From Klebsormidium nitens (lineage: Eukaryota > Plantae > Klebsormidiophyceae): a DNA stretch of 64,000 nucleotides. This document shows positions 40,214-64,000 of the stretch, in pieces. How positions within the stretch are numbered: position 1 is the stretch's first letter; every line of letters starts with the position of its first letter. The notes below the pieces were generated by a model. The model saw nothing but the letters and a program-made list of their open reading frames with translations. It did not search any database and was not told the origin of the DNA. The stretch is taken from NCBI GenBank assembly GCA_000708835.1, contig DF237335.1, positions 23,880-87,879 on the forward strand, given 5' to 3'. The position numbers were made by a program, and so were the translations under genes.

Positions 40214-41703
40214 ATGGCTTCTGACCTGCGTTTCCACTGGGAAAGGTAAGCCATGTTTATGAGCTGAGTATGCCCCACGTATGCCGAGCAAGAAGGGCTG
40301 ATCATTGATTGCGTTGCACTGAAAGGCCTTTCCATACTGTTGTGCTCTGACCCACAGGAAGCAAACTGTCACTTTGTGTACCTGCCTGTCTACGCTCTGT
40401 TGCTTCTTTATATGAGTCGATCTTGCAAAACCTGGACATGGCTGTGGTGGAGGTTTAGAGCAAGAGATTTAATCGGTGCTGCTAGGATCACTAGCTAATA
40501 TGGAACCCTTCCCCTCACTCGAATGCTGACTTGCACCCCCTATCTGTTTCTCTTCAGTGATCCTTCCTCCTCTGAAGAACCGGAAGGAGAGGATATTGAA
40601 GGTGTTGAGTATGCGCCCCGCTCTGTTGACGGCTCAGAGTCTGGACGCTCACTTGCGGACTTCCTCCAAGACGAAGACTGTGCCAGTATCCAAGGTCCGT
40701 CCTTCTACAGGGCGTTTAACAACGAGAAAAGCCTCAGCCCAGCTTATCTGCCAAGGGGTCTCCCAAATCTGCTAAGCAAGAAGAGACCCGCTCCGGTGAG
40801 CTTGCTTGTATTTTACATGCTTCCGGTGTGCAGCATTTGCGCGTCTTCTTCTGCCTTGATTCCATGACATAGGTTTTTGGAAAGAACCTTCCTTGCTTCT
40901 TGCAGCGCTAAGCCTTTGGCCTTCATTCGAAGACAGGCCCAGAAGTTTTGTAACTTGTCGTGCTTACAAGTCGTACCTAGGAGCAATGAATGCTTGACAC
41001 AGCTTGTGTGCTTGTGAAATCCTACTCTGCAATTCACCATTGTTGAAAAGGCTTTGCGCTGCTCTGAAGAACCATGAGTAGCTCATTTGCATGTATGCCT
41101 TGCAGGGGTATCTGCCTACGTCTCCATTCGCTTGGTCCTGTGGCAGCGCCTTCAGACAGCGGACCTGCATAACGCCCCCAAGCTGCAACTCACAGGTGAG
41201 GTAACAGGCTATTACAAACTTTGAGCAACTTGTGATCAAACCCGAGGGGTGCTACACACAATGATTTCAGCCGTTCTCCCAACCGATGATTGCACCTCAG
41301 AAGGTCCCATCAGCGACGGAGCGTTCTCATTGTGAGTTGCTTTGGAGAACGCTTGACAGGGAGGATGATGATCCATTGCGCAGACGAGGGAGTGTTCTAA
41401 GTCTGCTGATTACTGCCTCGATTCCAGATAAAGGTCTATTGCAGTCTAGAAGAAAGGTTGCTTCGTTTTGCACTTTAGAGTTGTTGAGTCTACCTCTTAT
41501 TTCACCGATCTTAGAAACTTCTTGTCTTGCATTTACAAAGTGCCTCCCCTTCTCAGGTACCTTCATCTTCTCGCGTCCTTCAAAGCAATGGCGGCAAGAA
41601 GGGTTCAAGTCAACCTTCAGCTGGCGACTGTAGTCAAAGCCTAACACTGAGAAGGAGAGGCCTCGTAAAGAAGCGGCGGCGCGTCATCCTCTCGCAAGAG
41701 TAA
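40214..41703 (+). pseudogene. Truncated paralog of exons 1-3 of the PrimPol-helicase gene (138 aa, then TAA)
   Basis: Exons 40214-40245, 40558-40795 and 41557 onward mirror 45760-45791, 46115-46352 and 46936-47121. GLVKKRRRVILSQE* versus GLAKKRRRVILSQDS (TCA to TAA). Confidence 0.8.
40388..40437 (+). repeat. 50-bp palindromic box (intron 1 of the truncated paralog)
   Basis: gtctacgctctg-26 nt-caaaacctggac. Confidence 0.75.
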
Positions 41704-42359
41704 GAAGAAGAGCAGCCGGTGCTCCCCCCCATTGGGTGAGAAGTGCGCTCAGCACAACAGCGTCCCTCTCCGCATGCAAAAGGCGGAACGTTGTGACGGT
41801 CCGTTTGAGTGACCCCAAAGGCTAATGCGACCTAAGTGGGTTTTGAGGGTCGGTGCGAACCCTTGGGGCTGCTATGCCAGTTTTCTGAGGCCTCAAGTGT
41901 GCCAGTGACTACCACGTATGGAATCCTGAGGGCTTGTTGGAGTTGAGTCAACACGGCAACGTAAATGTTGTTGCAGCCAATCATGTAGCGTCAAGCTCGA
42001 GTAGGGTTAACAACTTGGGGTGACAAACAGATGTCTATCGTGCTCTGCGCAGCGAAGGGTAGGTCTATGTGCAAATGATCGACATGTTCGATCTACCATG
42101 CATGTTCATGCTTTGAATCTGCACACGGCATCATGCAATTAATGATGCAGGTGTTTGCATTCCTTTGTTGAAGGTCATGCACATTCATATATCGATCGGG
42201 GCGTCTCGCACGCTTATGTATCATCGCCGCGCATGCACACTAAAGTCGTCACTCTAGAACAAAAGCGCGGAAAATATGCGCATCAAATCAAAGATATATA
42301 TGCATAATTGTATGCATGTTTGAGTTCACACGATCAAGCTCATACCAATGGAACATACG

Positions 42360-43064
42360 TTATGCATGATACACATGTACATCACCATCTGATCGTTTTA
42401 CACGAGTACCAAAGTATAAATACAAACAACCTCCAAACAATTGACTTGATGGAGACAAACCATCTTGCATGCCAGTAATGTAAGCGCTTGTCCGAACAAC
42501 TAGAATCGGTTTACTTCTGATCTGATCTTTTAACTCAGGAACGATGTCAAAATATGTACAGTGCTTTGGGCGGACTTTTGTCATGTGGCGCTTGTCTAAG
42601 GTTGCTAGTTGACTAGTATTCAAACGCTCTGCCACCTCAATGACTGACGCGTCCACGAGACCCAAAGGGAAATCTGAATACTTCTTCACTAACTCTAGGG
42701 CTCGTGGCAGGAACGACGGTTCCCATACGTCGACGATGAACAGCCCTTTCAAGACCCCTTCTTCAAGACACACAACTTCAATCTCCGTTCCACTATCTTT
42801 CACCAGTAGATGAGTTACCTCCGGAAGACAAAGTGACGGAAGAACCAATGGGTACCCCTCAGGGATAAGGACTGCTTCCATGATCTCATCGATGACTTTG
42901 TGATCAGCATCATTGTAGTCGAAGTACGCTTTAAGGAATCCCGCATCCACCACAAACGCATCTTCTAAACGCCGTCCCTCATGTGTCTTGACTGTTTTGA
43001 AGGTCGGAGCCATTGCCACGTTGTCTGCTTCTTTCCTTCTCGACCGCTTCCCAGCTGCAACCAA
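42360..43064 (-). CDS. VapC-like PIN-domain ribonuclease (bacterial toxin type), no intron within the domain; first ATG at 43013
   Basis: FVVDAG, LVLPSLCLPEV, ALELVKKYSDFPLGLVDASVIEVAERLNTSQLATLDKRHM..VRPKH; all four acidic PIN positions are present. A candidate acceptor (tttgctttggttgcag) just before 43054 means it could instead be a terminal exon. Confidence 0.85.
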   Translation of the reverse strand: MVAAGKRSRRKEADNVAMAPTFKTVKTHEGRRLEDAFVVDAGFLKAYFDYNDADHKVIDEIMEAVLIPEGYPLVLPSLCLPEVTHLLVKDSGTEIEVVCLEEGVLKGLFIVDVWEPSFLPRALELVKKYSDFPLGLVDASVIEVAERLNTSQLATLDKRHMTKVRPKHCTYFDIVPELKDQIRSKPILVVRTSAYITGMQDGLSPSSQLFGGCLYLYFGTRVKRSDGDVHVYHA

Positions 43065-44914
43065 AGCAAAGGTTGGAATCAGTGGTTAGAGAACTCGTAT
43101 CTCTTGGGGAGCAAACACTGTTTACAGTCTATCTATGCAAGCTGAGATGCCGCCTAGAGTAAATAGCTTCAAAGCAACTACCGTAAGGCGTAGTCTAGCC
43201 TCCCTCAGCCTAAAGGTTTTGTGCCAAATAGTCTGGTCCGTGACAACATGCACACGACTGGCCCTACCAATTACTGCTTGCAAAGGCCTACAGATTGTTA
43301 GGGCAGATGCATCAATTCCTAACATAGCTTCAACTGACAAAGAAGGGAGACCTTTCAAAACCGGCTGGAAAACCCTTTGCATATTGGCGGTTCCGCTGGT
43401 ATCCTTCAACTGTGTTGTCACTCACGCTTCGATCCACGCTTGAGAGCGTCCACGACGCATGTATCGCGCCTTCCGTTCCTCCATACTGATAGACTCGGCT
43501 TGCTCGCGCCACATGGCCCATTGGCGGTCCGTCTCGGCCCAATGTTCAAGCTCTTCCCGGTCCATAGTCTTTCCCTCAGGGATCCAAGACTCTTCAAAGA
43601 CAATTGCAACTGGTCAGATTGCAACGCAGGCATCTCCTTAGCACTGTTAGGGTTTCTGGGGCTGAGGTCCGAACGACGACATCGCAACAGCTTGTGCCCT
43701 AGCCAATCACCTTTTGCAAACATTTCATGAGCAAGTAAGAAATTTTGACAACGACAGAATACTTGAAGCAGATGATAACTGCAAGGATGCTGATAATGTC
43801 CGTCAAAGACCACATAATGGAAAGTCAGCGATCACAGCACTGCTGCAGCAAGAAATCTATGAAGCTGCCCATATCGCAGGGACCCTGATACACGAGAGAC
43901 TCCTTGAACTGCAGGAGATCTGAGAAATGCATACGTCAGCAAGAGTCTCCAAGGAGCGGCTATCATAAAAAATGTTTTGATGAAGGCGAGCAAGGCTTTC
44001 ACAAAAGGTGTCCTGAACAGGTCCCCAAAAAAACCTCAACCTTGCTGGAAAAACGAATTCGCTCAGACCTATTTCTACAACCCAGGCCCCTTCTGGAAAA
44101 TGGTGGTTAGGGAAGCTCCAGTTCAGCTCGTACGTCAACTTTGTACCAAACGCCTAATGACACTGCCCTTGCTGAATCCAGAGATGAATGCTTCTGTAAC
44201 ATGTTCCCCTACCACAAAAGTACCTAAACCCCTTCCTTTCCTCCTGTTGCTGCGAGAACATTTCTGACATAAAGAGAAGCTTGCGAGAGGAGGTTCCAGC
44301 AGCCTATACTACATACCGGTGGCTCGCTCCCCCTTGAGCAGACTTCCAGACCACATCGGACGCCCCACGTTCCTGGCCTTGGGAGCAACAATGATTGCAT
44401 GCTCCTGGTTGTCTTGCCGGTGAGGCCCCTGGCAACCACAAAAGTACACCCTTCAAGAGAAAGTCAAGGTGATTGAGCAATGGCTGAAACAACAACACCG
44501 CCGCCCCAGCAAAAGAAGTGCCAGTAGATGACGCTCCTTTCTTATGCCACACAGCTTTTTAATGTAAGCATGCAAGTCCGAGAAAGATGCAACAACGGGG
44601 TCGAACCTTGAACCTTGCAACATTAAGGTTATCCAAAACAAAAAAGAAGGGGGGTCGAGACAGAGCAATCCGCCTTATTCAGGCGTTCACGTCCAACAGT
44701 GGCCGTACACAAGGCAAAATCTCACCTGTGCAGCAGGGGCGCAGCAACGAACTTGAACGACGCGACAGGCGGAAGCCATGCGTGCCTACTTTTCGAAACT
44801 TTGCGCAACCAGTGCAAGTCGAGTTGGAGAGACTCTGCTGCGACTGGTCCAGCCAGGGTGGCTCCCTTGTCCTGCCTCCAACTAACCAAGATTGTTGACA
44901 TAAAACCCGCCAAG

Positions 44915-45440
44915 CTCAGCGTGTACCCCCCGGCCGGAAAACCTGCCCCCCTGCCCGAACCGGCCAAGCTGCCCCTCGAACTGGCCTGGGTTAGAAACTT
45001 TCTGGGTTACCTTGAAAGGGAAAGAAACCAGCCCCAAAAATTTCACGGAGGAACTGCATCGGAACAAGGCACTGATCACCTGCCGTTTCACCACGTGCCA
45101 TGCCGGCTGAACCCTAAAGTTCCCGATAATCCAGGAGTCAGGCCAGAGAGACAGCCAACACTCCCGACTGCAACCGCTGACTCGGAGCTCGCTGAGACAC
45201 CCGAGTCAGGCCTCCTTTCCAGAGAGACAGCCAACGCTCAACCGCAACAGCTGAGTTGGAGCTCGCTCAGACGTCTGAGTCAGGTTTCCCTTGAGAGAGA
45301 GCTCGGAATGGCTTCGGAAACGCTCAACCGCTTCAGATTTGCTCGAGGAAAGTCTGACTCAGGCCCCTCTCGCGAGAAGCAAACAATGGGGCTTAGGGCG
45401 GCAAAAACTCTATATAAGGAGGTCTCATTCCTCTTTTCAG
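44915..45440 (+). promoter_or_regulatory. Putative Pol II promoter of the PrimPol-helicase gene: repeated GAGTCA/TGACTCA sites and a TATATAA box (45411-45417)
   Basis: The paralogous copy at 39280-39760 also has repeated TGASTCA motifs and TATAAA (39730-39735). Both lie upstream of a conserved GGCATGG start. Confidence 0.5.
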
Positions 45441-45759
45441 ATCAGCCAAGTCTATCATCCTTCAGCCCTCCCTCCTCGCAACATCCCAGCAGCAACTTCT
45501 TTCCGACCTGCATACACTGTTCTGAAGCGCCCTCTTCAGAGCAACACCAACAGCTTCCTTCAGTCTGTAGGAGACCTTTACAGCATGCTTTTCCTGCTCT
45601 GAGCGGGCCTCTTCCTGCCTGCGACCTCCTGCACGCGAGCACCGATTTCTTGCATAGTTAGGGAAGCCAGGAAGCCCCGAGCCAGTCTCAGCATCCGTGC
45701 GCAGCTGCCCAACGCAGCTTGCAACAGCACCAATACAGCTGCAACTGAAGACTGCTGGC

Positions 45760-48700
45760 ATGGCTTCTGACCCGCGATCCCACTGGGAAAAGTAAGCCGC
45801 TGCTCATGAGCTGAGTATGGCCTCAGTATGCAAAGCCAGAAGGGTCTTCTTGATAAAATTTGATTGAGACTGGTACGGATCGTGATGGAATTGCACTGAA
45901 AGGGGCTTTTCCATATTTGATGTGCTTCGAATCATTCGAAGAAGACCTGTCCATGTTCTGTCGCTTCTTTATATGTGTCTCTGATGCAAAACCTGGACAT
46001 GGCTGTCGTGGAGGTTTAGAGCGAGAGGTTTAAACGATGCTGCTGAGATCACTAAGCTGAGCCCTGTCCTCCAAAACCCAAAGGATGACCTGCATCCTTA
46101 TCTATCCTCTCCAGTGATCCTTCCTCCTCTGAGGAATTGGAAGGAGAGGATATTGAAGGTGTCGAGTATGCGCCCCGCTCTGTTGGCGGCTCCCAGTCTG
46201 GACGCTCGCTGGAGGAGTTCCTTCAAGACGAAGACTCTGCCAGCATCCAAGGCCCGTCCTTCTACAGGGCGTTCAGCAATGGGAAAAGCCTCAGCCTAAC
46301 TCAGCTGCCAGAGGGCGTCTCAACTTTGCTCAGCAAGAAGGAATTTGCTCCGGTGATTTTATCGGCTTCTGCTTCTGATTTTGCCGTGCTTCCGAGACAG
46401 CTTCTGTGATTGTACAACGGCACCTCAGTTGACTGCCATCTAAATCTGTTCAGTGAACCACCGTTGAGTAGGCTCTGGTCTGCTGCTGAAAATGCATAGG
46501 TTGCTCACCGGCATGTATGCCTTACAGGGTTACGTGCCCACCTCTCCATTCGCTTGGACTTCCGGTAGCGCCTTTGGAAAGCGGATATGCATAACCCCGC
46601 CAAGCAACTTCCAGGTGAGTTAAGAGGCTAGTACAAACTTGCGCAACTTGTGATTAAAACTTCGTGATACTGCACAGGTTGATTGCAGTTGTTCTCCAAT
46701 CGTTGCACCTGAGAAGATTCCATCAGCGTGGATCGTTTCTGTTCCAGGCTTGTTGTTGCTCAACAGGACGGCCTTAGATGCTGCCTACAGTGACCTTTCC
46801 AGTATGTTGACAACCGCCTCAATACCAGATGATGGTCTGGTGCACTTTGTATAGGCTGTTGAGTCTGCTTCTAACTTCTTCGATCCTTCAGTCCACTTCT
46901 CCCTCGTTTACTCACTGCCTTCTCTCCTCATGTAGGCGCCATCATCTCGTTGCATCCTGCAAAACGTTGGTGGCAAGAGGCTCGCAAGTGAAGCTTCAGC
47001 TGGCAATTGCAGTCCGAGTCCAACATCGAGAAGGAGAGGCCTCGCAAAGAAGCGTCGGCGCGTCATCCTCTCGCAAGACTCAGAAGACGAGCAGCCGGTG
47101 GCCCCCCTGCCTCTTGTAGAGGTGAGTCGTGCTTGCATACAAGTTTCGTCCAGGTTTTGCAGATGCGAATTTTCAAACGACAAAACGTGGATATCAGCTG
47201 GAGTCCCTTTTCTGCAGCCAGCTCTGCTCGTCTTCTGTGTTTTCTTGATGCAGAAGCTGGACAGGCGCTTAGAACTCAAATGTCGAGGCACGTCCCTAAG
47301 CTTGGAAATAAAAGAAGTGACGGTCCAGGTTCTGTCGTTTCTTTATACGCATCTCTGATGCAAAACCTGGACGGCAAAGATCTCAAGGCCCCAGATTCTT
47401 TACTCTCAAAACTTGCGAAAGTCGAGGCACGTGCCCAAGGTCAGAAGCAAAATCAAGTCGCCGTCCAGGTTCTGTCGTTTCATTACACGTGTCTCTGATG
47501 CAAAACCTGGACAGCACAAAACTTCAAGGCTCTAAAACAGTGAAAAACCTTCGCAACAATGCAGAAAGCGGGCAGTGCCAACTGCTTAGCACTCAGATCA
47601 ACGCCTTCCATTTGTTGGCCTCGATCAAGTTCTTTGAAACGGGGGGCAAAGCCAGCATTTCTGACGCACACTCCTTCGTCCTTTCTGCAGGTGGCAATCG
47701 GTCAACCCGTTGATAGGGTGCGCGCAACTGATCGCAGCCAAGAGCATGGTTTCGCACAAGAGCAAGCTCAGGTACAGCGCCTGGCCATAAGGACCGTTTA
47801 AGGTTAGATGAAGGCAAGTTGGTAGAAGCTCGCAGCAGACTCAATGGCAGACACGCACGTGTGAGCAGTCTAGTCGGGAACGAGAAACCCCAAATCAGCC
47901 CTTCAAACGATTACAGTATCTTGCATCCGTTTGTGCAATCCGATTCATACATTGGAAGAGCCGCTCAAAGCTGAACGGCTTCCTCACGAGTGTCGTTTCA
48001 ATTGCTTGCTTAAGTGAGCCGTTCCCTCCGTCAGCTTCCGAAGTGTTGTCTCCTTTTGGCAGCGTTCTTGCAATACTTCTGCTCGATATTCACCTTGCAA
48101 AGAATTGAGGCTGCAAAAATCAATCATGTGATGCCCGTCTAGCAGAAGTAGCGTAATTTCTCAGGCTCTGTTGCAGATCCCTGGTCGTGTGATGGTGCAC
48201 ACCGAGCGTGACGGCACAATCCAGACAGTGCAAGAGAACAAACTCGGAACGGCCTTCTTCTCCAAGCTCAGTCGAGCAAAGCTCCACTACCAAGACCCTA
48301 AGAACGGGCCGCAGGGTTTCAGCAAGCGGTATGCTGCTCTCTGCGAGCACAAGGTGGAGCTGCAACTTCTCGACCACAAGGGCTATCGCAGCTATGGGTC
48401 GTACTCAGACTGGCCGACCGCGCGGGACTTCACTTCGCAGCAGCCTTTCCTCGAGGAGGTGCTTGTCGAAGGGAAACCCTGCAAGCCGTTCCTAGACATG
48501 GAAAGAGATCAGGGGTTGCCCGAGGGGGAAACTCTTGAGAGCATCATCAGCCAGTTTCAAGAGGCCATCACGAAGATCTTTGCGGAGGACTACGCAGTCG
48601 AGATCCAAGAGCGGGACTTCAACTGGGTCCACTGCGACTACGGACCCGGCGGCAAGTTCAGCGTCCATCTCGTCATCTCAACGCATGGGCCGCGACAAAT

Positions 48701-51700
48701 GGTCTTCCGTTCCAATCTCGCCCCTAACGTTGACCCGCAAGGAGCAGGGCACCTTGCCCGTAGGCTTGCTAAGGTTCTCCCCCCGACCCTGGCTGACCTC
48801 ATCGACCAGAGTGTCTACACTCGGAATCGAGGCATCCGGATGCCTGGTTGCGCAAAGCCATCCAGACCCGACTGCCCCCTGCGTCCCCTGGACCACGCCA
48901 AGCCATATGCTGACAGCGTCATCACCTGGCAAGGTAGGTAGCCTCTTGTATACGACGGCTTGCTTTTTCTGGAGAAACTCTTCGCTGAGTGGCAGGATAG
49001 AGGCAAGTCGCGGTCCAGCTTTTGTCAAGTATTTTAAAGCAGAGATATGCAAACCCTGGCCAGACGCCGGCACATGACTGCCGCATGGCACTGCCCGATA
49101 GCTTCAGGCTTGTTGACCTGTGAAGTTTGTCAGAACGGAACTAGGAACGTATAGCAACTTGACTTGGACTTTATAGGCACAAGAATCGTGTGTCCAGTTT
49201 TTGTCAATTTATATTACGCTCATTCTTTGCAAAACGTGGACAAGTTTGTGCGCACCATCTTTGAAGTAGGTCGTGCGCTCAAGACTGCAAGATATAGACA
49301 AGGCCCTTCTGCTGGCTGACGTCATTAAATGATCTGCTTGAGTCGGTCGAATTGAGCACCTTTCGTCCGAAGTGTCATCAGGCAACTTGACTTGGACTAA
49401 GTTCATAAGGACAAGAATCGCCTGTCCAGGTTTTGTCCTTTTATATTACGCTCATTCTTTGCAAAACGTAGACAACTTTCTGCGCACCATAACTGAACTA
49501 GAGCGTGTGCCAAAGACTGCAAAATGTAGACAAGGCTCCACTGCTGGCCCGCTGACGTCATCAATCTGCTTCGTTGTTTGACCAGGAGGTTGACTTCATC
49601 AAGGTCCCCGTCCTCGTGCCTGATGCTATGCGACAACAGCGGCGCCCCACCAAGCCCGCCGAGATGGCTGTCCTCAGCGCCTCCAATCTGGACGCCTACA
49701 CGGTCCAGCGTTGCCTAGAGCTCTTGCAAGCACGGTTACATCCAACGGCCTACAAGCGAGGGGCGAGTAGGGAGCTGAACTACAGCTGGACGGACCGAGA
49801 AGGAGAGCCGTGCTACACCGGGAACACTCACTCTGGAGGGCGCGATCTTTTGTGCATCGTGAACGAGACTCAGAACGCCGTCTTTGCCAAGTGCTCCAGC
49901 GAGAGGGTCGACTCCACAACCGGAGTGTGTTGCATGGAGCAGCCTGCCCACTATCTCGGCCGTTTGTACGAGGACGTGGAGACTTGGAAGGCCGGCGCCA
50001 TCGAGATCGACATGCGCTACCTCGAGCGGGACCCCCTTGCTGCTGGACCGATGGATCTGCAGCTGATCCGGATGGGCTCGAAGGGGATGACGGACAAGAT
50101 TCTTCTGAACAGCGTGGTCAACAGGTGAATCCGCAAGTTTCGATTGCTTGCAACTGCAAAGATCTGCCGCTACTCGCTAGTATTTTCTGGTTGTCTTCCT
50201 GAGTCCGTCAAGTTCATCTGTCTTGCTCAAGTTGAAAGCACAGCATATCGCATGTAAGCAGTTGCAGCAGCTCTTGGATTCACCTTATAAACGGTTCCAA
50301 TTGTAATGACAACCTGTTTCTTTTGGCGCTTTCTCAGATTTGGCCGCACGTATGATAGGCTGATAAACGGTTTTAGCCTCGAAGTCAAGCGGCTTTCCTG
50401 CCCACCGTTGAAGTAGATCCTTGGCTTCGCAGGTGGCAAGCTGGCGAATTCCAGGCGCTCCTCGTTCGAAGCCCGATGGGCACGGGCAAGTCCGAGCTGG
50501 TCAAGCGGATCAAGGCCGAGGAGCCCGTCCCTCAGAAGATTCTGCTGATCACTTATCGGCAGACGCAGGCGGCTGATGCACACGGCAAACACCCGGAATT
50601 CGCCCACTATGCGGACCTCAAAGCCCTGCCATCCCAGCTGAACGAGCAAGGGGACTTCGTTGCTCCTTTAGCCGACCAAGTGCGGTTCCCAAAGGTCATA
50701 GTCCAGTTCGATAGCCTTAACCACCTCCTCGTCGACAGTAGAGTGGTCGACTCATTCGATCTCGTAATTCTTGACGAGAGCGAGTCCATCTTGGCCCATC
50801 TTTCAGCTGACACCTTCTCCAACAGACACCGGACCGTCAACTTCCTGATAGAGCTTCTGGACCAAGCAAAGCGGATCATAGCGCTGGATGGGCACTTGGC
50901 TCAGCGGACGTTCGACTTTCTCACAATGAGCGGCATCCCGTGCGGGCCTGTAGTGGTCAATAATCACCTACCCGAGCGTCCGCTCGAGTTTACAATTCTA
51001 GAGAAGGACGAGGGGAAAGCTTACTGGCAAAGGTCCATCTGGTCTGCTCTAGAGGAGGGCAAAAACTGCATAGTGTACAGCATGTCGGCGGAAGAAGTCT
51101 TCAAGTTGAGGGACGCCACCGAAGCTACAGGCCTGCTACAAGCCTCGGAAATACTCGTGATCACAAAAGTTTCTCCCGGAGACATCAAAATGGGCCTGAA
51201 CAACGTGAACCTCTCCTGGAAACGCCGGTTGGTCATCCTCAGCCCCACAGTGGAGGCAGCGGTCGACTTTTCGGCGCGGTGGTTTCACCGCTGCTTCATC
51301 TACATCTGTCCACAGAGCACCACTCCGAGGGGCTTGGATCAGATGAAAAGCCGCGTTCGAAACCTGGAGGAACCAGAAGTGTTGTGCTACGTGCAAGCCG
51401 GCATCATTTTGCCGAGCAAGACGGGGCTGGACGCTTTAGGTGCGTGCGATGGAGGTCAGTGTACAGCCGCTGAACAATGGCTTGGTAAACCATAGGCTCT
51501 GCTCCGATAGACTGCCTTTGTTGCAAAGTAGCTAGAGTCTTTTAAAAGCATGACCGTAAGACTTAGGCATGGGCCTAGGCTTAGGGCGTCTATGTTTTGT
51601 CAGGTTCCAAAGCACGTGCTCGAATTCCGAAAACCAGTACTAGTTAGTAGGTCCGATTTGCCGTCCAAGTTCTGTCCTTTCTTTATATGTGTCTCTGATG

Positions 51701-53268
51701 CAAAACCTGGACAGCGCGAATCTCAAAAAGATGACAAGGCCTTGAGCGTTTATGTTTTGTGGAATTGGACAGCAGCTATGCTCGTCTAAATTTTGTCGAG
51801 AGCGAAGGCACGTGTTAGACCTTGACAGCGAAGCAGATCGGGGGCGCCCATGTTTTGTCGATTCTATGTATGCGTTTCCGATGCAGAACCTGGACAGTGC
51901 AGATTTTGAGGCCCTGCTCGAAGTCTTTGCAACGAAGATAGCCTGTACGAGCTATCACGGACTTACATCTTTGTGTGATTCATCCGACCTTATTCTTGGT
52001 TCTAGATCGATTCTGCTGAGTTGAAATCCCCTTTACAATTCTGAGTAAGCAGCACTTTCAATCTGAATCTTGCCAACGTACTTCCTTCGTGTACTCTATG
52101 TGCAGACCCTGTGGGCTCGACTCAGGCTGTCTACCTAACTGCCATGGGGCCCAAACAAGCAGCAAGCCGGCGGCTGGGGGTAGAGGAATCCTACCAGTTC
52201 ATGCGCTGGATACACAAGAACGTGGAGGCCCGTCAAGAGACGAGGCAACGAGGGGAAGGGGGACAGAGCATCTTCGCGCCGATAGAGGACGCTGTAATGA
52301 GGGTCTTAGCACATAACGAAGCTGAAAGCAGCAACAAAACCTCGCACTTCTATGAGGTCTTCACTGAGTTGCTCAAGAGCGAGGGGCATATTGTGAAGGG
52401 GGTGCGCCAGTTGGACCTCGCGCCGAAATCCTTGGCTGGCCCGGAAGAAGACGAGGAGGGGCCTTCCCGAAGCTATCTAAAGCGGCGTCTGCTGGGGGCG
52501 CCTGACATCTCGCTCGAGGAGGCTAAGCGCCTTCAGCTTCTGATTAACAAGAAGCAAGATCGGGAGGGGGACTTTGCGAAGGTGGAGCGGTTCAACTATC
52601 GGAGGTTTTACAAGCTTCGACAGCTTGATGGACCCTTTCTTGACATCTTTGGGGGACAGCATCTCGACTCCCTCACCTTGCTGCTTCAAGTGGTCGATCC
52701 TGCCTATCAATTCCCCGAAGACGAGATCGGTAGAGCGAAGTCCGCGCCACTCATGGCAAAGCTCGCGAGAGAGGTCGTTTGTGTGCTTGGGCTCGACCAT
52801 CCGTTGGATTACGCACATGAGTCCGAGAAACTGGAGGTTCTGAGGCCGAAGCTGGCGGCGACCGAGTACTTCCGCGACTACGGAAGATGTGTTCGGCTGT
52901 TCACTGGACGCACCGTTCAACAGATCGCAGATCTAGACGACCCGAAGGCGGTCTCCCACGCCTTGAACCACATCTTCAACCGGATGGGCGTCCATGTTAA
53001 GCACGTCCGGTTGGGCCGGCAGACAAAAGCTGACTGCAAGGCTACTAAGAAAAGGGAGCGCCTGTATGGGGGTTGGCAGATTGAGCCTGAATGTTCCGGA
53101 AGAATCGTGGGTGCGAAGCTCATGGTGCAGTTGCTCAAGCTACAGGTGGAGGCGTCTTCATTGATGCTGAGAGATCTGGACTCAAGTCTAAGAAGGCTCA
53201 TAGAAAACGCGCCGTTCCAATACAGGCACCTTGTAGAAGCCCCATGCATGTTGGAAGCCGTAGTGTAG
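45760..53268 (+). CDS. Spliced PrimPol-type AEP primase + Zn finger + UL9/origin-binding-protein-like SF2 helicase fusion (~1347 aa)
   Basis: Exons 45760-45791, 46115-46352, 46936-47121, 47691-47771, 48177-48933, (49108-49148 candidate), 49586-50124, 50433-51439, 52106-53268; 4044 nt in total, in frame. Motifs: EEVLVEGKPCKPFLDME, KFSVH, IDQSVYTRNRGIRMPG, CYTGNTH...AKC...C, VRSPMGTGKS, LLITYR, VILDESESIL, ILSPTVEAAVDF, QMKSRVR. Confidence 0.85.
45949..45998 (+). repeat. 50-bp palindromic box (intron 1 of the helicase gene)
   Basis: gtccatgttctg-26 nt-caaaacctggac. Confidence 0.9.
47148..47512. repeat. Three boxes in intron 3: 47148-47192 (reverse, shortened), 47323-47372 and 47463-47512 (140-bp tandem unit)
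   Basis: gtccaggttctgtc...gatgcaaaacctggac occurs twice. The whole 47270-47535 block is an inverted copy of 60545-60812. Confidence 0.9.
49013..49473 (+). repeat. Three boxes (49013-49061 degenerate, 49192-49241, 49424-49473); the last two lie in a 232-bp tandem duplication
   Basis: gtccag(t/g)ttttgtc...ttgcaaaacgt(g/a)gac. The flanks caacttgacttggact and caagactgcaa...agacaagg are duplicated. Confidence 0.85.
51663..51895 (+). repeat. Two 50-bp boxes (51663-51712, 51846-51895) in the last intron of the helicase gene
   Basis: gtccaagttctg...caaaacctggac and gcccatgttttg...cagaacctggac, each preceded by CACGTG. Confidence 0.88.
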
Positions 53269-53512: not shown

Positions 53513-53562
53513 GTCCACGTTTTGCATCAAAGACACATATATATAGATGACAGAACGTGGAC
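53513..53562 (-). repeat. 50-bp box (reverse orientation) between the helicase gene and the intronless cassette
   Basis: gtccacgttttgcatc...gacagaacgtggac. 53490-53630 is an inverted copy of 63485-63620. Confidence 0.9.
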
Positions 53563-53710
53563 GGCGACTTGCATAAGCGCGCACTCGTTGGCAAAATCTG
53601 GACGGCGATCTGAGCGCATTCTTGTTCTTCGGTTTTGGTACTATGGACTCGGTCACGTTTCCATGAAATAGCAATCATTGTCTGACAAACTTGTTGAAAC
53701 CCGAGCTTTG

Positions 53711-54124: not shown

Positions 54125-54186
54125 CTCGTCGAAGTGTTCTATACTACTCGGTCATGTTTTTTTTTTCCAACTGATCAACGCAAACC

Positions 54187-54540: not shown

Positions 54541-55397
54541 TATTCTGTTATTAGAAAGGAAAAGAAATCCGGCATGCTGTAGGCTCTGTCCCCCCAGTCT
54601 TCATCACTGTCGACTGCAACACATTTGAACGTTGTTGCCTTGCTTCCTCGAGCCTTTCCAGTGGCTTTTGAAGTGCCTGTAGTAGCTGATTGTTTCGCCT
54701 TACCATTACAAGTTGACTTCCTCTTGCAAGTCTGCTTTGAAGCCTTGCTCGATGCTTTGCACTTCTTCGTGCTCTCTTGCTTCTTCTTTGCGGAAGCGTG
54801 CATCTCGATGAGCTCGTCGACCGGTATCTTAGTTGCTGATGTTGAAAAAGTCCCCTGGAACGGGAGGCCAACAGGTCGTTCACACTTTTTGATTGGAGAG
54901 ATCTTCACTTCATATCCGAATTCCTTCTTGGCTGAACCTCTAGTCGATTCCTGCAGCAGAACACTCACAGTGCAGGGTGCTTTGATGGCTGCACCGTTAC
55001 ATTTGAGTGCCCGAAAGAGCTGGCTTCCAGCTCGAGTGCCTGCTTGTGAAACACGCCCCTTGTCAGCATCAATCTCGAGACGTGTGTCTTCTAGAAGGCT
55101 CGAAGCATCTGATTGGTTATGGTCAAGCGCAAGAAGCACTTTAAAGGATCGTTTCAATGCAATATCCATTAGGCCGGCTGTATGATGTAACGACAGACAA
55201 TAAACCTGAACCCAAAGTGCTTCATGCCCCCTACTTTGGAGGCTGGCCCACTGAAGCACTTCGATCGTCTCGTTGATCTGGCAAGGGTTTTGACAGACAA
55301 TCATCAGAAGTTGCCCTTCTATAAGCAGATTGTTGGCTACATAAAGCACATTACAAAGTTGAACGGCCCCAGTCACAATTCTGAGGGGCAGATTCAC
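54540..55397 (-). CDS. Hypothetical protein with a Lys-rich C-terminal tail (start uncertain; ATG options near 55303 or 55169)
   Basis: 858-bp open frame coupled by TAATG to the next ORF. Confidence 0.5.
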   Translation of the reverse strand: MNLPLRIVTGAVQLCNVLYVANNLLIEGQLLMIVCQNPCQINETIEVLQWASLQSRGHEALWVQVYCLSLHHTAGLMDIALKRSFKVLLALDHNQSDASSLLEDTRLEIDADKGRVSQAGTRAGSQLFRALKCNGAAIKAPCTVSVLLQESTRGSAKKEFGYEVKISPIKKCERPVGLPFQGTFSTSATKIPVDELIEMHASAKKKQESTKKCKASSKASKQTCKRKSTCNGKAKQSATTGTSKATGKARGSKATTFKCVAVDSDEDWGDRAYSMPDFFSFLITE

Positions 55398-55894
55398 AAT
55401 TCGTACGGATTAACACTTAAATTGGGACCCCTGGAGCAAAGTCTTCCTGGGAGCTTTTGCCATTTTGACCACGTCTTGGGAAATTATGTCGTTCCAGGGT
55501 TTGAATTCTGGAATGAAGCAGAAGATCAATCAGTATGTATCGGACTCTGGAATTGAAACGGTGATGCATTTTTGTCGGCTCTCTCTGACTGTATTAGTAG
55601 TTCTGACATTCATCATTTCTATCTGAAGTCTTTGAATTCTAGAATCGAGACAAAAGGGCAATTTTCATGGATATGCAGCCTCCTTCTTACCCAAGTTCGG
55701 AAGCAAAGGTAGGATCTTGGAAAGGCCACCTCAGGTGGTAAGAACAAATGAGGCAATGGTCGATACATCGTTTCAGGGTATTTGCTCTGAGCAGCCGAGA
55801 GTTCTAGAACATGATTCCCTAGGGGACGCATCTCAAGAAGGCGCCCTCGTTTTAATTTCAGAATTATTATAGGCCTCTATAGTATAAGGGAGTC

Positions 55895-56962: not shown

Positions 56963-56989
56963 AAAGTATTGAATCGGATTTGTAGAATA

Positions 56990-59470: not shown

Positions 59471-59486
59471 CCCTCTATGGTAAGTA

Positions 59487-59765
59487 CTAAGGAAAATAAT
59501 TCCCGGAATCCGGACGCGTCAAAAACTTGCCTTCTTGCACATACCCGGCAACTACAAGCTTTGCCATGGTGGAGGGTCGAAGCCTCTTGCCTTCGGAATA
59601 TCGAATTAAAGCTTTGCGTAGACATATCTCCACTTTAGCTTTGCTATAGTGCTTACGAGACCAATCTCTATATTTGTCGAGATTCGAATGTCGGTAGCGC
59701 GCTTCATACAGCCGCCGGTGATGGTTGGGATTAGGTTCTCTTGTGTCTAAGATTGACTCAGCCAT
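59487..59765 (-). CDS. Small basic hypothetical protein (92 aa), likely paralog of 53711-54124
   Basis: YRDWSRKHYSKAKVEICLRKALIRYSEGKRLRPSTMAKL; lies directly upstream of the Prim-Pol gene on the same strand. Confidence 0.6.
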   Translation of the reverse strand: MAESILDTREPNPNHHRRLYEARYRHSNLDKYRDWSRKHYSKAKVEICLRKALIRYSEGKRLRPSTMAKLVVAGYVQEGKFLTRPDSGNYFP

Positions 59766-60103: not shown

Positions 60104-63100
60104 TCATCTATACAAGAGAGCTGCGCGAACTGCCGGCGACCATAGTTTGACTCTGCCAGCAATTTTAATCTTCTGGTCATCAACACGTGTCAATTCTGCG
60201 TTGCGCCCGCTTACTACATTAGCTAGAATGATCATGAATGCCTCAAGACCACTAAACCAAGATAGCACCTTGAATTTGATCAGGAAGGAGTTGACGCTCT
60301 CGACGGCACTAGTATTCACCCAACGTACAGTGTCGTATAAATCAGGGTTATATTGGGGGCCACACTTGTGCGCCTCCTGGCCAGTCTTCTGGAAGTGGAA
60401 CCTGCAGAGTGCAGTATCGAAGCATTTTACTAGATGCACGCATACATCTTTTCAGAGGCGGTTGCTTTGAGCACACATTAGTATGAGCCATCAAACAAAA
60501 GAAATAACTCTAGATGAAGTGCCAAAGTATTCTCATTGAAATGGAGCCTTGCAATCTCTGCCGTCCAGGTTTTGCAGATTAGATGCATATATAGAAAAGA
60601 CAAAACGTGGACGGCGACTTGTTCTGTTCCCAAGCTTAGGCACGTGCCTCGACTGTCGCAAGTTCTGAGAGTAAAGCATCTGGGGCTCTAAGATCTTTTG
60701 CCGTCCAGCTTTTGCAGATGAGATGCATATATATAAACGACAAAACGTGGACCGCGACTTGTTCTGTCCTCAAGCTTAGGCACGTGCCTCTCGACTGTCG
60801 CAAGTTCTGAGTCCAAAAAGTTGATTATCTTGTCCTAGATCAACGACCAGTTCGCAAAAGCATGGACGTATTTGCGGTTTACACACTCACCGGTCGATCA
60901 GAAACCGTACGTCAGCAAAGAATGCAGGCTCTCGCCTCATACTGTACGCCCTCAGCTTGCACGAATTATCGTAGATCACATAAGAAGGCAGTGTGTGCCG
61001 GTGGAGGCGGGTGTACAACACCGCGAACGGATCACGAGGACTCTCCCCCCGGAGCATCACGTGCCAGCCGTAGATCACCCTGTGAGGGCAGCAGAACACA
61101 AAGCCCCCCTTTGTATGCTTTTGCAGCCGCTTGCCCGCTTTCTCACTCTTGGCAGCCGCAACCTTGGCATCATATTCCCCGACCGTGAGACCGCTTTTAC
61201 AGCGGTGCTCCTCGCTGCTTTCGACGGCCCGACCAAGCTCATCCTCGAACGGCTTGTACTGGGGCAGGGGCCGCTTCTGCTCCCAACCGGGAAGGGGATA
61301 GCAGCCGAGCACAGTCTGCTCTCGGCTGTACGGGTGGTTTTCGGGGAGCGCTTCGAGGAGCCGTCCGTCCCCGGAGAGCCCTAGCCGATCGTGCAGCAGC
61401 TCGCGCTCGGCTTGGTTAAGAGCATACACGGAGGGGTTCGGTGGCTGCAAAGCCTCGACACCGGGAAGCAGCCTGTTCGCTCTCCCTCTCTAGAAGTTGT
61501 AGCTCTCCTCTCGCTCCTCGTTCCAAGACCCGGGGACGTCCCGTCGCAACTGTAGCAGCCAAACGCAGGCATCCAACCCCTCGATAGCAGACAGCGCCCA
61601 TCCGGCTCGACCGACCCCCAGCCCGACCGCCCCGCGTCCGAACAACGTCAGCCGGTACAAGTGGTGCAGCGTGGGGAGAAAGAAGGCCGGAAACACTCCG
61701 TCGTGGTTGTCCAGCAACCGACGAAGGATGGGCGCATGCTCGGCCAGCACGGCCTTTCCCCCCTCGTCTGCTGAACCCTCCAGAAGGATCGTCCGAACAA
61801 CAGCCAGAGCCGCTCCATGCTGGATCAGGTTGCTGTCGTCAGCGACGGTCTGAGGGGCCCCCAGAGCGTAGAGCACTTCCGCCCACCACTTTCGCGGCGA
61901 ACGCACTCGACCGGGGTTGACGCCCGAAGCAGCAAGGGTCTCCCCCCGGATCCCCTCCAACAGCAGCCGTGCAGCTCGGTTCTTCGATCGGATCTGCCCG
62001 ATCTGCTCCTGCAGAAGGCGCCTCCTCTGGACAGTGCAGCAGGACGGGCTCGGCATCCGCATCGTCGGGGTCGGGGACGAACTCCGAGACGAGCTCCACA
62101 TCATCGCGATCTAACGCAACCTAGGTAGAAGTCAAGAAGTCAAATTCCCGGAGATGATCAAGTGGGCATCATCTGAAAGGCGCGTTTAGATTTAGGTCGA
62201 CAGTGCTAAAAGATCTCGTGTCAACCTCTTAAGTCCCACTGCAACAACCTCGGCTAAGCATTAGAAGGATTCATCGCGCCTATACGGAGCAGACTGGCAT
62301 CGAACAGCGTGCGCAACTTGCGCTCAATCGCTCCAAAGTCGACGTCAGATTCAACACCATGGTTGCCACAAAGACTGAAAAGCTCCGCAGTTTGAGTTTA
62401 GGATAAATAACTCTGCTTGAAGGAAGTTGCGCCGTGCACATTTGCCAGAACTCTAGCAGTTTGAGCGAGGATCTCGTCCGTTCAGCGTGGGGAGGAAATG
62501 GTCTGGAGCCACCTTCTGGCACCTTTGATTATCACTTATAAAGTAAAAATGTATATAGGATTGGTATACACTTTTTCAATGGCCTGGCACCATGGCACCT
62601 TGGGCACCTCATTTTCAATCATGGAACTTTCAATTCACAAAAACCTGAACGAAGAAAAAACAAGAGGTGGTGGTGTCCAGGGTGCCATTGGGTGAGAACC
62701 TTACAAAGATATTTTTGGTCACAAGCATGATCCGTTCCACCTACCAGCAGCTCTTGGAATTCACTCCCACTCAGCTGCGCCCCCAGATCCGGGTCCTTTG
62801 GATGATGTTGGCTGTACCGCGCCAGCAGAGCCCGCAGCTCCGGCTGGTGGATCAAGCGCCGCTTCAGCCCCCGCCCCTCCAGCGCAGTCGCACTGAAGTT
62901 CACACCGGCTTCCATGTGCTTCACGACGGTCCCCCCCAAACTGTCACGACTCGGAGCTGTGAAAGGCCGGAGTTCGCTTGCCGCCGTCCGCGCCAGCCCC
63001 CCTTTCGATCGGCTACCATCCGCGCACGCTAGCCCGACAATACCGTCGCAGAGCAGAACGTCTGGGTGAGGCCCGCAAAGGCTGCAGCACTCGAGGATGC

Positions 63101-64000
63101 TTCGCCCACACAGCCGGAAGAAGGCCAAGCAGACCTTCCGCCACGACTCCTCGCTGAGAGAGGGAGCGGCTCCCGGTGAGAAGAGCGTCCGAACCGCCTT
63201 CTGTGCGCTGATCAGGGCGCTGAACGCGGATCCGGTCCCTTGAACCGAACGGAGCAGGAGCTGGCAGGACTCTTGCGTGACGATGATGGCTCTGCTCCAC
63301 GCATACAGGCCAAGCGCTTCCCCGTTGAAGTGGACGGTGTGCTTCAACGGGCATCCGCAGCAGTAGATCCGGACCTTGACCTGCGAGGATGTGCGCGCGC
63401 TTAGCCAACGTCCGTCCACGTTCTGTCATTCATATATGTGTGTCTTTGATGCAAAACCTGGATAGCTTTTTGAAGCTCCGCACTCGAACAAGAATGCGCT
63501 CAAAACGTCGTCCAGTTTTTGCCAAGAGTGCGCGCTCAAGTCGCCGTCCACGTTTTGTCATTTATATATATGTGTCTTTGATGCAAAACCTGGACAGCCT
63601 TTTGAAGCTCTTCGCTCAGATAACCGTTTGGCAGTTTCTGCGAATTTTTATACCTGTCTCATATGCAAAACCTGAATTGCACCAATCGGAACCGGACACG
63701 TGGCAACGCCTCGTGCGGACACGTGGCAGGCACCCTCACCTCAAGCTGAGAGCTCTCAATCTCAGAAAGCTGCAGTAAAAACGAGCATCTTCTCACTTTG
63801 ATCTGGCAGAAGTTTGCATCACGTACCTCTTGCGACCATCGCAGCGAATGCACGCATGCGCTCTGCAGCAACGCCTGCCACGCGATGCCACAGGGAGCCA
63901 GCCCGGGCTTTGGGCAAGGTGCAGACAAGCACCCCGCGGCGCTCAGCTCCTCGAAGTCCCTCTGCACGAGCACGCTCACTCTCACGGGCCGCCGCATCGG
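60104..64000 (-). CDS. KDZ (Kyakuja-Dileera-Zisupton)/HMGXB3-like transposase with a cysteine-cluster domain; spliced, 5' end beyond the window; one in-frame TAG at 61490-61492 and an unresolved junction near 62010
   Basis: Exons >64000-63827, 63380-62745, ~62124-60891, 60401-60104. Motifs: CSLCGPHPDVLLCDG, GGFVFCCPHRVIYGWHVMLRGESPRDPF, YVIYDNSCKL, FLIDR|FHFQ...HKC, NTSAVESVNS. Confidence 0.82.
60563..60752 (-). repeat. Two 50-bp boxes (60563-60612, 60703-60752; 140-bp unit) in the last KDZ intron
   Basis: gtccag(g/c)ttttgcagat...gacaaaacgtggac; inverted copy of the 47270-47535 block. Confidence 0.9.
63414..63677 (+). repeat. Two 50-bp boxes (63414-63463, 63546-63595) and one degenerate copy (~63628-63677) in a KDZ intron
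   Basis: gtccacgtt(c/t)tgtcatt...gatgcaaaacctgga(t/c). Confidence 0.9.

Follow-up and report, generated by a model that had tools for sequence, protein, structure and literature searches.

A 50-bp palindromic repeat beside a UL9-like primase-helicase gene in Klebsormidium nitens: candidate sites of the co-encoded helicase

Inverted recognition boxes split by an AT-rich spacer make up the HSV-1 origins OriS and OriL, and the same genome encodes UL9, an SF2 helicase whose C-terminal domain binds DNA (PMC12543377). A comparable arrangement can be observed in a window of K. nitens DNA (the whole stretch of 64,000 nucleotides that was analysed, from contig DF237335.1), where a palindromic 50-bp repeat accompanies a gene for an SF2 helicase with a predicted C-terminal DNA-binding domain. 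The details are different. The repeat arms, GTCCASGTTYTG, show no relation to the boxes of UL9, GTTCGCAC (as given in Table 1 of PMC12543377), and they enclose a spacer of 26 nt. Unlike UL9, the K. nitens helicase is fused to an AEP primase and does not contain the RVKNL motif. HSV-1 has three origins per genome, whereas the K. nitens sites number 17 and form short tandem arrays, mostly in spliceosomal introns.

The homologous regions (hrs) of baculoviruses are a second system of this kind. They are built of 3-8 repeats of 64 bp, with one imperfect palindrome of 24 bp per repeat, and are described as both origins and enhancers (PMC4535591). As in the hrs, the K. nitens palindromes are imperfect, occur in scattered short tandem arrays and in both orientations, and have a core that is better conserved than its flanks. 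There is no sequence relation, however. The hrs occupy intergenic positions in the genome of a free virus, and their binding protein, IE-1, is no helicase; the K. nitens units (132-232 bp), by contrast, are placed in the introns of an element that is nuclear and intron-bearing. Judged by analogy, the layout nevertheless appears to resemble the baculovirus homologous regions more closely than a single herpesvirus origin.

In virophages and polinton-like viruses, the primase-helicase gene adjoins inverted repeats or palindromes that were proposed, hypothetically, as its origin (PMC11296320). Palindromes of 52 nt are also described in TIRs, preferentially together with non-pPolB replication genes (preprint 10.64898/2026.07.28.741278). 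The linkage of helicase and palindrome in such "replicative end modules" is likewise found here for the UL9-like family. The end modules, however, combine D5-type (SF3) primase-helicases with terminal sites, whereas the K. nitens helicase is of the SF2/UL9-like type and its sites are internal, multiplied and, in the host copy, placed in introns.

Finally, MITEs and introner-like elements share with the K. nitens repeat their short length, inverted-repeat ends, multiple copies, intronic location and occurrence in both orientations. The repeat differs from them in that it shows no target-site duplications, never supplies splice sites or a whole intron, and forms tandem arrays. It is undescribed in the literature found on Klebsormidium origin-binding protein, introner, MITE, or Kyakuja helicase/primase. 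The 50-bp units are predicted here to be the likely cognate binding (origin-like) sites of the co-encoded AEP-primase/UL9-like helicase, with a rough probability of 0.5.

The repeat family and the genes that carry it

The family comprises 17 copies, 13 of exactly 50 bp and four that are degenerate or partial. These and the surrounding genes are as follows:

46939..53268, + strand: AEP-primase/UL9-like SF2 helicase gene, 5' end further upstream (tblastn of homologues, Pfam, splice signals)
52471..53265, + strand: C-terminal domain of 265 aa, predicted to bind DNA, helix plus beta-hairpin, winged-helix-like (AF2 pLDDT 93.1)
60107..64000, - strand: KDZ-type transposase gene, 3' two thirds, running off the window (exon map)
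40388..40437, + strand: 50-bp core, delta type, in a truncated 5' duplicate of the helicase gene (52 bits)
45949..45998, + strand: 50-bp core, delta type, in a probable 5' helicase intron inferred from GTAAGC after 45793 (65 bits)
47145..47191, - strand: degenerate core of 45 bp with a spacer of 21, reversed, in the same intron as the 47237, 47323 and 47463 copies (32 bits)
47237..47265, + strand: partial core (right part of spacer and right arm), start of the alpha array (14 bits)
47323..47372, + strand: 50-bp core, alpha unit 1 (140-bp tandem), helicase intron 47122-47698 (exact pattern)
47463..47512, + strand: 50-bp core, alpha unit 2 (exact pattern)
49013..49061, + strand: degenerate core of 49 bp, helicase intron 48930-49570 (nhmmer match 49003-49059, 16 bits)
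49192..49241, + strand: 50-bp core, gamma unit 1 (232-bp tandem; nhmmer)
49424..49473, + strand: 50-bp core, gamma unit 2 (nhmmer)
51663..51712, + strand: 50-bp core, helicase intron 51421-52110 (nhmmer)
51846..51895, + strand: 50-bp core, helicase intron 51421-52110 (nhmmer)
53513..53562, - strand: 50-bp core, beta unit, 245 nt past the helicase stop, with half-sites at 53479 and 53592 (exact pattern)
60563..60612, - strand: 50-bp core, alpha unit, last KDZ intron, sense (exact pattern)
60703..60752, - strand: 50-bp core, alpha unit, last KDZ intron, sense (nhmmer)
63414..63463, + strand: 50-bp core, beta unit (132-bp tandem), KDZ intron between exons 63997-63806 and 63401-62742, antisense (nhmmer)
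63546..63595, + strand: 50-bp core, beta unit, same KDZ intron as the 63414 copy (exact pattern)
63633..~63677, + strand: degenerate core, same KDZ intron as the 63414 copy (17 bits)

The helicase exons lie at about 46939-47121, 47699-47795, 48141-48929, 49571-50125, 50425-51420 and 52111-53265, followed by the stop codon at 53266-53268. Those of the KDZ gene, whose introns contain five of the copies, are 63997-63806, 63401-62742, 62120-62034, 62026-60923 and 60400-60107. The segment 40177-41728 is a duplicate of 45723-47107.

An nhmmer profile, built from the 13 full-length copies and run on the window, recovered its 13 source copies together with the four degenerate or partial ones. An earlier note on this DNA had counted about 16 copies; the 13 copies of exactly 50 bp were all confirmed at their coordinates, and the total was raised to 17. 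The exact pattern GTCCASGTTYTG-N26-CAAAACSTGGAC occurs at 5 places, versus 0 in 100 shuffles, and the 12-mer arm with at most one mismatch gives 31 matches versus 1.17 expected, every one at or beyond 40426. All 17 copies fall between 40380 and about 63675, and the profile gave no match above 5 bits in positions 1-40000. The claimed confinement to the element holds at the scale of the window, with no copy in its first 40 kb.

Scanning viral_contigs for the core pattern gave 0 matches. The same scan of metagenome_contigs retrieved one contig (L001), whose 117-bp tandem repeat is GC-rich and bacterial-looking and has unrelated spacers; it was dismissed as a chance arm match. A 130-aa ORF across two units, used as a proxy for a translated repeat, found nothing at E <=10, and words of five or six residues from the translated cores had no meaningful occurrence in 35 homologous proteins.

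The core is embedded in longer tandem units of 132, 140 and 232 bp. Eight arrays of 1-3 units each, with periods of 132, 140, 183 and 232 bp, are located in helicase-gene introns, 245 nt past the helicase stop and in two KDZ-gene introns, in both orientations. The copies had been described as almost all intronic. This applies to 14 of the 17 by homology-supported exon maps and, with an inferred 5' intron, to the 40388 and 45949 copies; the 53513 copy instead lies downstream of the helicase stop. The orientation relative to transcription does vary as claimed, since the KDZ gene has one sense and one antisense array. In the helicase gene every well-formed copy is sense.

This distribution introduces a serious rival explanation, a selfish miniature repeat (MITE- or satellite-like) without a replication role that would spread, as a core of 50-62 bp or as a 132-140 bp unit or array, through the non-coding DNA of a transposon-rich island. 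In a variant of it, the arms would be terminal inverted repeats for the KDZ or another transposase, or the arrays would move by recombination. The core is found in at least four unrelated flank contexts as well as in both orientations. The 2.5-unit array 47237-47560 recurs inverted at 60542-60800, in the intron of a different gene, and the beta unit 53491-53627 is 90% identical to 63486-63617. This copying of arrays between unrelated introns has the look of selfish spread and counts against an origin. Arrays make up 47-85% of their carrier introns of about 520-690 nt (five of the eight introns mapped), and two of the three array-free introns are only 299-345 nt long, which agrees with a repeat that inserted into pre-existing introns and expanded there. 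With at least 17 KDZ paralogues (58-90% identity), a source of transposase is available, and 12-nt inverted arms are of the kind by which the terminal inverted repeats of MITEs are recognised. On the other side, no target-site duplications or direct repeats were seen by eye beside the cores or units of the 13 copies. There is no empty site for comparison, because in the sole paralogous segment homology ends at the splice site. The arms are better conserved than spacer and flanks even among units of one genealogy, and the adjoining 40 kb of intron-rich host sequence is free of copies. Furthermore, selfish spread leaves unexplained the palindromes of the same layout next to viral helicase relatives (see below). 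Taken together, it is considered rather unlikely.

Two further identities were rejected. The inverted, 90%-identical beta blocks at 53.5 and 63.5 kb are not the ends of a transposon, as the right block lies within a KDZ intron and the gene extends past it. The repeat is not an introner either: the splice sites are outside it, and the arrays never fill a whole intron. The five copies in KDZ introns also count against sites of the helicase: the KDZ and helicase genes may belong to different elements, because their K. nitens paralogues have no scaffold in common. No tyrosine recombinase was detected by Pfam in stop-to-stop ORFs of at least 60 aa between 38 and 64 kb, and the ORF at 54543-55409 had no usable match in the protein atlas.

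Core architecture and conservation

The proposed architecture of inverted boxes flanking an AT-rich spacer was borne out by the 13 full-length copies. Two inverted 12-bp half-sites flank a 26-bp spacer, which has an AT content of 67%, versus 49% in the arms and in the region. The spacer is always 26 nt because no well-preserved copy has an indel. Conservation amounts to 1.64 and 1.80 bits per position in the two arms, 1.21 in the spacer and about 0.25 in the flanks beyond 10 nt. The spacer divergence of the earlier note was overstated: pairwise identity is 65% in the spacer versus 88% in the arms.

The four homologous 140-bp alpha units likewise reach an identity of 89% and 96% in their arms, compared with 74% in the spacer and with 76% and 62% in the flanks. 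Their right flank contains 46 gap-pairs and their core none. The motif GGCACGTGCC is restricted to these alpha units. In the delta pair, the core is 82% identical, no better than the surrounding duplicate (about 85%), which counts against its being a site.

The arms are conserved as sequence rather than as a stem. They pair in 85.9% of cells versus 87.6% in shuffles, and do not covary (score 0.034 versus 0.051 in shuffles). Moreover, stem positions 6/45 are unpaired in 10 of the 13 copies and 10/41 in seven. The absence of covariation and the two mostly mismatched positions thus indicate that the arms are kept as sequence, which fits a protein that recognises duplex half-sites. A G-box/ABRE identity of the arms was dropped because their central C/G position is variable.

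The missing covariation and the unpaired stem positions likewise speak against an RNA-level element, i.e. a pre-mRNA hairpin that affects splicing or gives rise to a small RNA. Such an element would agree with the sense orientation of all well-formed copies in the helicase gene and with one mismatch that becomes a G-U pair on the opposite strand. Only 5 of the 13 copies, however, have a clearly better fold than their shuffled versions, one of the KDZ arrays runs antisense, and Rfam gives 0 matches at E <=1 in 40-64 kb. A 12-bp stem is also too short for Dicer-type processing. This explanation is disfavoured and regarded as highly improbable.

The primase-helicase and its C-terminal domain

The primase domain of the K. 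nitens protein gives a weak DNA_primase_S match. Pfam Herpes_ori_bp matches the helicase with E 5.5e-17, over profile positions 52-199 only, and the SF2 core matches UL9 chains in the PDB with E 1.3e-7. By this sequence similarity, the core is homologous to that of UL9.

For the C-terminal domains the relation is weaker. The top VIA match of the model is HSV-1 OBP 547-832 (9hgi_A), with a weak Z of 6.0, below the level of 8 advised by the tool (rmsd 7.2 A, 179 residues aligned). It was the only match with Z >=5 among 48,161 chains (next best: Z 4.8), it was also the top match of an earlier, poorer model (Z 5.6), and most of the lower-ranked matches are DNA-binding domains of the winged-helix type. 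With Foldseek, neither C-terminal model had a match in the PDB, and there was no sequence match. The translated last exon lacks RVKNL, the recognition motif of UL9, and among the paralogues there is no conservation of the aligned stretch.

If the 50-bp units are indeed sites of the helicase, a dimeric or two-copy DNA-binding domain at its C-terminus would recognise both half-sites, while the AT-rich spacer would be the place of duplex opening and priming. The sites may have been multiplied by local tandem duplication and by the copying of whole arrays to nearby introns, among them those of the adjoining KDZ gene.

Palindromes beside viral relatives of the helicase

Relatives of the helicase (20-30% identity) were collected at 46 loci of viral contigs, i.e. 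virophage and giant-virus contigs, several of them virophage-like by Pfam. A palindrome was defined by 12-nt arms with at least 11 of 12 positions complementary, a spacer of 12-45 nt and a start no more than 150 nt after the stop codon. The PrimPol-D5 ORF was considered as a control set and had no viral relatives; therefore, ORFs within the same loci were used instead. A palindrome follows the helicase ORF at 21 of 39 evaluable loci, versus 30 of 341 other ORFs (OR 12, p 9e-11). Once near-duplicate loci are removed, the figures are 19/35 helicases versus 14/149 ORFs of at least 300 aa (p 2e-8) and 8/58 ORFs of at least 500 aa (p 5e-5). The post-stop palindrome is thus about six times as frequent for helicase relatives as for other genes of the same loci.

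In these viral relatives the palindrome is located 0-129 nt past the stop. The arm sequences differ between viral lineages and the layout is constant. For 16 of the 21 downstream palindromes, the arm motif recurs outside the palindrome, with up to 17 sites per locus. As the 46 loci show, this helicase family is generally paired with a large-loop palindrome next to the gene, in a lineage-specific manner. The window matches the viral layout in that its copy at 53513 begins 245 nt past the helicase stop.

A position shortly after the stop is also what would be expected of a transcript-end signal. The sites could accordingly be regulatory or transcript-end signals inherited from a virus, either enhancers/operators or 3'-end sites of the helicase gene, recognised by some factor of the host or the element that is not the helicase. 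The baculovirus homologous regions, which have the same layout, are enhancers as well as origins (PMC4535591, PMC2834656). Among the long ORFs that accompany the helicase in these viral loci, however, only 9-14% are followed by a palindrome, so that it is no general terminator. In addition, the loops are large (26-45 nt), and the copies in the window are mostly intronic rather than at gene ends. Such signals are therefore judged improbable, more so than selfish spread. A narrower objection to an origin is that the viral post-stop palindrome could be a 3'-end signal specific to this gene, or could mark where a mobile helicase cassette ends.

The idea of origin or binding sites put forward in the earlier note consequently stands in part. 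It is favoured by the architecture, the UL9-homologous core, the palindrome linkage in viral relatives and, weakly, the structural match of the C-terminal domain. Opposed to it are the missing RVKNL, the arms unlike UL9 boxes and the dense copies: 17 sites in about 23 kb are far above known viral origins. Binding sites of the co-encoded helicase remain the preferred reading. A broader version is less probable: the palindromes would be working origins, the insert a virophage-derived self-copying element, and initiator plus palindrome the general replication unit of a whole family of virophages and giant viruses.

These results bear on the initiation of DNA replication in virophages, polinton-like viruses and their endogenous relatives. 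The window offers a candidate initiator-site pair: on the DNA side, half-sites of 12 bp with a constant spacer of 26 bp, and on the protein side, a C-terminal domain of 265 aa that is modelled with confidence. Together with the general pairing in viruses, this opens the matter to a direct test by binding assays. If the reading is true, it would connect small DNA parasites of eukaryotes with an origin-binding helicase of the herpesvirus type, and it would mean that such sites survive and multiply inside the spliceosomal introns of an endogenised copy.

Architecture and conservation gradient of the 50-bp unit

The repeat family in the last part of the window is real. Its pattern as first described has five exact matches in the window against none in 100 shuffles, and the 12-mer arm, with one mismatch allowed, has 31 occurrences where 1.17 are expected, always at or beyond position 40426. 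The 13 copies of exactly 50 bp reported in the earlier note were all found in place, and an nhmmer profile made from them, with every filter off, regained them at 46-70 bits. The profile adds four degenerate or partial copies:

47145-47191, degenerate core, reversed, 45 bp
47237-47265, partial core, right arm only
49003-49059, degenerate core, 49 bp
63633-63675, degenerate core

In window bases 1-40,000 no profile score exceeded 5 bits with filters off. The claimed confinement to the element is shown for the window, which is its scope. A generic scan for palindromes with any 12-nt arms gave a clear excess at spacer 26 only, in the last 24 kb; the excess at spacer 28 comes from those copies again, read with a one-base offset. 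A candidate member in a metagenome contig (L001, 2930-3197) was rejected. It is a 117-bp tandem repeat in a GC-rich, bacterial-looking contig, with a chance fit of arms to the degenerate pattern and GC-rich, unrelated spacers.

The copies were aligned in the orientation set by their asymmetric spacer. Information per position is 1.64 bits in the left arm, 1.80 in the right arm and 1.21 in the spacer, falling to about 0.25 more than 10 nt outside the core, and two copies agree on average at 88% of arm positions and 65% of spacer positions. The description of inverted boxes around an AT-rich spacer is borne out, with 67% AT in the spacer versus 49% in both the arms and the surrounding 24 kb. Arm positions pair in 85.9% of cells, versus 87.6% when partners are shuffled, and positions 6/45 and 10/41 are unpaired in 10 and 7 of the 13 copies, respectively. 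Accordingly, the unit is not a conserved hairpin but a pair of related half-sites (GTCCA-S-GTT-Y-TG and GTCCAGGTTTTG), inverted relative to each other and set a fixed distance apart. Double changes in arm pairs are confined to one cell, and only 5/13 copies fold clearly better than shuffles. A hairpin acting at the RNA level is very improbable.

Placement of the units in genes and tandem arrays

The following features were found in the last 26 kb with Pfam, the last two below threshold:

42363-43085, minus strand, PIN-domain ORF
50377-51492, plus strand, Herpes_ori_bp helicase ORF
56993-59518, minus strand, intronless PrimPol+DUF5906 ORF
48132-48938, DNA_primase_S
minus strand, CxC4 and KDZ

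A tyrosine recombinase was not detected by Pfam in 38-64 kb. The proteins most similar to the helicase gene product are from K. nitens and annotated 'replication origin binding protein'; one paralogue is 90% identical, and 12 or more others share 47-55% identity. Their tblastn footprints place the exons at 46939-47121, 47699-47795, 48141-48929, 49571-50125, 50425-51420 and 52111-53265, with GT and AG signals at most boundaries. K. nitens paralogues, at least 17 of them at 58-90% identity, confirm the KDZ gene, which is on the minus strand and extends beyond the window. The two sets of paralogues have no common scaffold (0/8 named helicase scaffolds among 17 KDZ scaffolds), and the two genes may therefore belong to different elements. 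The best named matches, P0006 for the helicase and P0019 for the KDZ gene, are each about 90% identical to the window. They come from two separate short scaffolds, a pattern compatible with a sister copy divided between these.

As the earlier note held, almost all copies are intronic and their orientation relative to transcription varies. The introns of the helicase and KDZ genes hold 14 of the 17: three helicase introns contain nine, the last KDZ intron two (sense) and an upstream KDZ intron three (antisense). Two more lie in a probable helicase 5' intron and its duplicate, and one lies 245 nt downstream of the helicase stop. Array-bearing introns measure about 400-690 nt, with arrays making up 47-85% of the ~520-690-nt ones; array-free helicase introns measure 299-345 nt. 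The profile scan of the window found no copies in the 620-nt KDZ intron 62121-62741. Splice sites are never supplied by the repeat.

The cores are parts of longer tandem units:

alpha unit, 140 bp, cores 47323, 47463, 60563, 60703; also bears a second palindrome, GGCACGTGCC
beta unit, 132 bp, cores 53513, 63414, 63546
gamma unit, 232 bp, cores 49192, 49424
delta pair, cores 40388 and 45949, inside a segmental duplicate of the helicase gene 5' part

The delta pair is one event, since both cores lie in this duplicate (40177-41728 versus 45723-47107, 80-85% identical). Its homology stops exactly at the 5' splice site 47121/GTGAGT, and the PIN-domain ORF lies between the two copies. The four alpha units share one genealogy over 140 bp; identity among them is 89% and 96% for the arms, 74% for the spacer, 76% for the left flank and 62% for the right, where 46 gap-pairs occur against none in the core. 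Across five local duplicate pairs, differences fall at 8/120 arm and 17/130 spacer positions. Only the delta pair departs from this, with a core (82% identical) no better preserved than its surroundings.

A 2.5-unit alpha array recurs inverted in introns of two different genes, and the beta units at 53.5 and 63.5 kb are 90% identical. Such copying of entire arrays from one intron into an unrelated one, with a transposase family nearby, would suit a selfish miniature repeat. However, inspection by eye of the 13 full-length copies showed no target-site duplications, and conservation is specific to the arms.

Several other features were observed. The 56993-59518 ORF (842 aa, Prim-Pol + D5-like DUF5906) is a second primase-helicase of another type in the same region; the profile scan found no cores in or beside it, and a single-protein scan found no relatives among viral contigs. 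A different imperfect palindrome lies at 53345-53394, 77 nt past the helicase stop (GTTTTGATCGTG - 26 nt - CCTGATCAAAAC, 10/12 positions matching); its arm ends have the GTTTTG/CAAAAC hexamers common to the spacer-proximal ends of the core-family arms. Tandem repeats occur at 35176-35301 (13 nt, 7 copies) and at 45143-45284 (74 nt, 1.9 copies, within ORF 44627-45658). In the host part, 8747-9507 resembles a foldback or MITE-type insertion, with nested inverted arms at 8797-9059 and 9192-9454 (263 nt, 95% complementary), outer 52-nt arms (96%) and an inner 58-nt pair (98%).

The helicase and its viral relatives

The family architecture is AEP primase, PriCT-2, UL9-like helicase and C-terminal domain, in proteins of 1000-1400 aa. 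The label 'UL9-like' holds for the SF2 core, the only part matched by Pfam (profile positions 52-199 here, up to 374 in paralogues) and matched also by PDB UL9 structures. It does not extend to RVKNL, the recognition motif of UL9 (PMC12543377), which is absent from the last exon; the corresponding stretch is variable among paralogues. By sequence, the last exon matches no family and no solved chain. Its first structural model was of low quality (pLDDT 59.9). In a second, for which 65 homologues were collected and 62 sequences aligned, the C-terminal 265 residues reached pLDDT 93.1 and pTM 0.88. Foldseek found nothing in the PDB for either model. The C-terminal domain (547-832) of OBP, the origin-binding protein of HSV-1, was the top VIA match for both models, though a weak one, at Z 5.6 and 6.0, below the tool's advised trust level (second model: rmsd 7.2 A over 179 residues; next match Z 4.8). 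Most of the lower matches are DNA-binding domains of the winged-helix type, which align with a helix and beta-hairpin at model residues ~158-204. The predicted likeness to the OBP origin-binding domain counts as suggestive solely on account of the independent homology of the N-terminal halves.

A helicase-core profile found 46 loci from viral contigs (20-30% identity), many of them giant-virus bins. Five small annotated loci hold between them Sputnik-type major and minor capsid genes, an A32 ATPase, an rve integrase and a tyrosine integrase; by this gene content, the five contigs are virophage-like. Families of at least three fixed-spacer palindromes occur in 8/46 loci, with lineage-specific arms. 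Examples are:

L002, GGTGGGGTAAGT - 27/28 nt - ACTTACCCCACC
L040, TTACTCAAAATT - 26 nt - AATTTTAAGTAA
L033, tandem array, 128-142 bp period, directly past the helicase stop
L011, 63 bp, GGTCGTAAGTCG - 39 nt - CGACTTACGACC, six copies as mirrored triplets at both contig ends

The mirrored triplets of L011 (a 15,586-bp IMG/VR contig) imply that its terminal inverted repeats span 2.9 kb or more. A 1484-aa helicase ORF and a GIY-YIG ORF are also present on this contig.

Linkage was scored for 12-nt arms at least 11/12 complementary and not low-complexity, with a spacer of 12-45, starting at most 150 nt past the stop.

Table. Palindromes beside helicase and other ORFs (ORFs called mechanically; loci phylogenetically non-independent; five near-duplicate loci removed where de-duplicated)
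Downstream, all evaluable loci, ORFs >=150 aa: helicase 21/39, others 30/341, OR 12, p 9e-11
Upstream, all evaluable loci, ORFs >=150 aa: helicase 11/39, others 34/326, p 0.004
Downstream, de-duplicated, ORFs >=300 aa: helicase 19/35, others 14/149, p 2e-8
Downstream, de-duplicated, ORFs >=500 aa: helicase 19/35, others 8/58, p 5e-5

After de-duplication the upstream signal falls to p 0.05-0.2 at 150 nt. The downstream palindromes of the viral loci begin 0-129 nt past the stop; their spacers are 59-100% AT, and the genomes they come from 17-32% GC. The window's helicase gene, with copy 53513 at +245 nt, passes a 300-nt limit and fails the 150-nt one. A helicase gene with an adjacent palindrome is a family-wide linkage, as distinct from a function. 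This linkage also speaks against the selfish miniature repeat, which we consider unlikely, though the foremost of the alternatives. Inherited regulatory or transcript-end signals are a good deal less probable, and slightly less weight again goes to something else.

An origin-like reading of the units

The window units resemble HSV OriS/UL9 in logic and the baculovirus homologous regions (hrs) in layout. They belong to neither, since the recognition motif and boxes of the former differ from the window helicase and arms, the C-terminal fold match is weak, and the hr sequences are unrelated. The literature search (main texts, few subscription journals) found no description of the window repeat or of a linkage between the UL9-like family and palindromes. 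The nearest published ideas are two hypotheses, both concerning D5-type helicases: a 'replicative end module' in polinton-like viruses (PMC11296320), and, for endogenous virophages, terminal palindromes tied to non-pPolB replication genes (preprint 10.64898/2026.07.28.741278).

We favor, with a probability of about 0.5, the reading that the core units serve the primase/UL9-like helicase as cognate sites, with an origin-like function and an hr-like layout. The C-terminal domain of the helicase would bind the half-sites, and the AT-rich spacer would be the place of opening and priming. The multiplication of units that gave rise to arrays and reached the KDZ introns would then be secondary.
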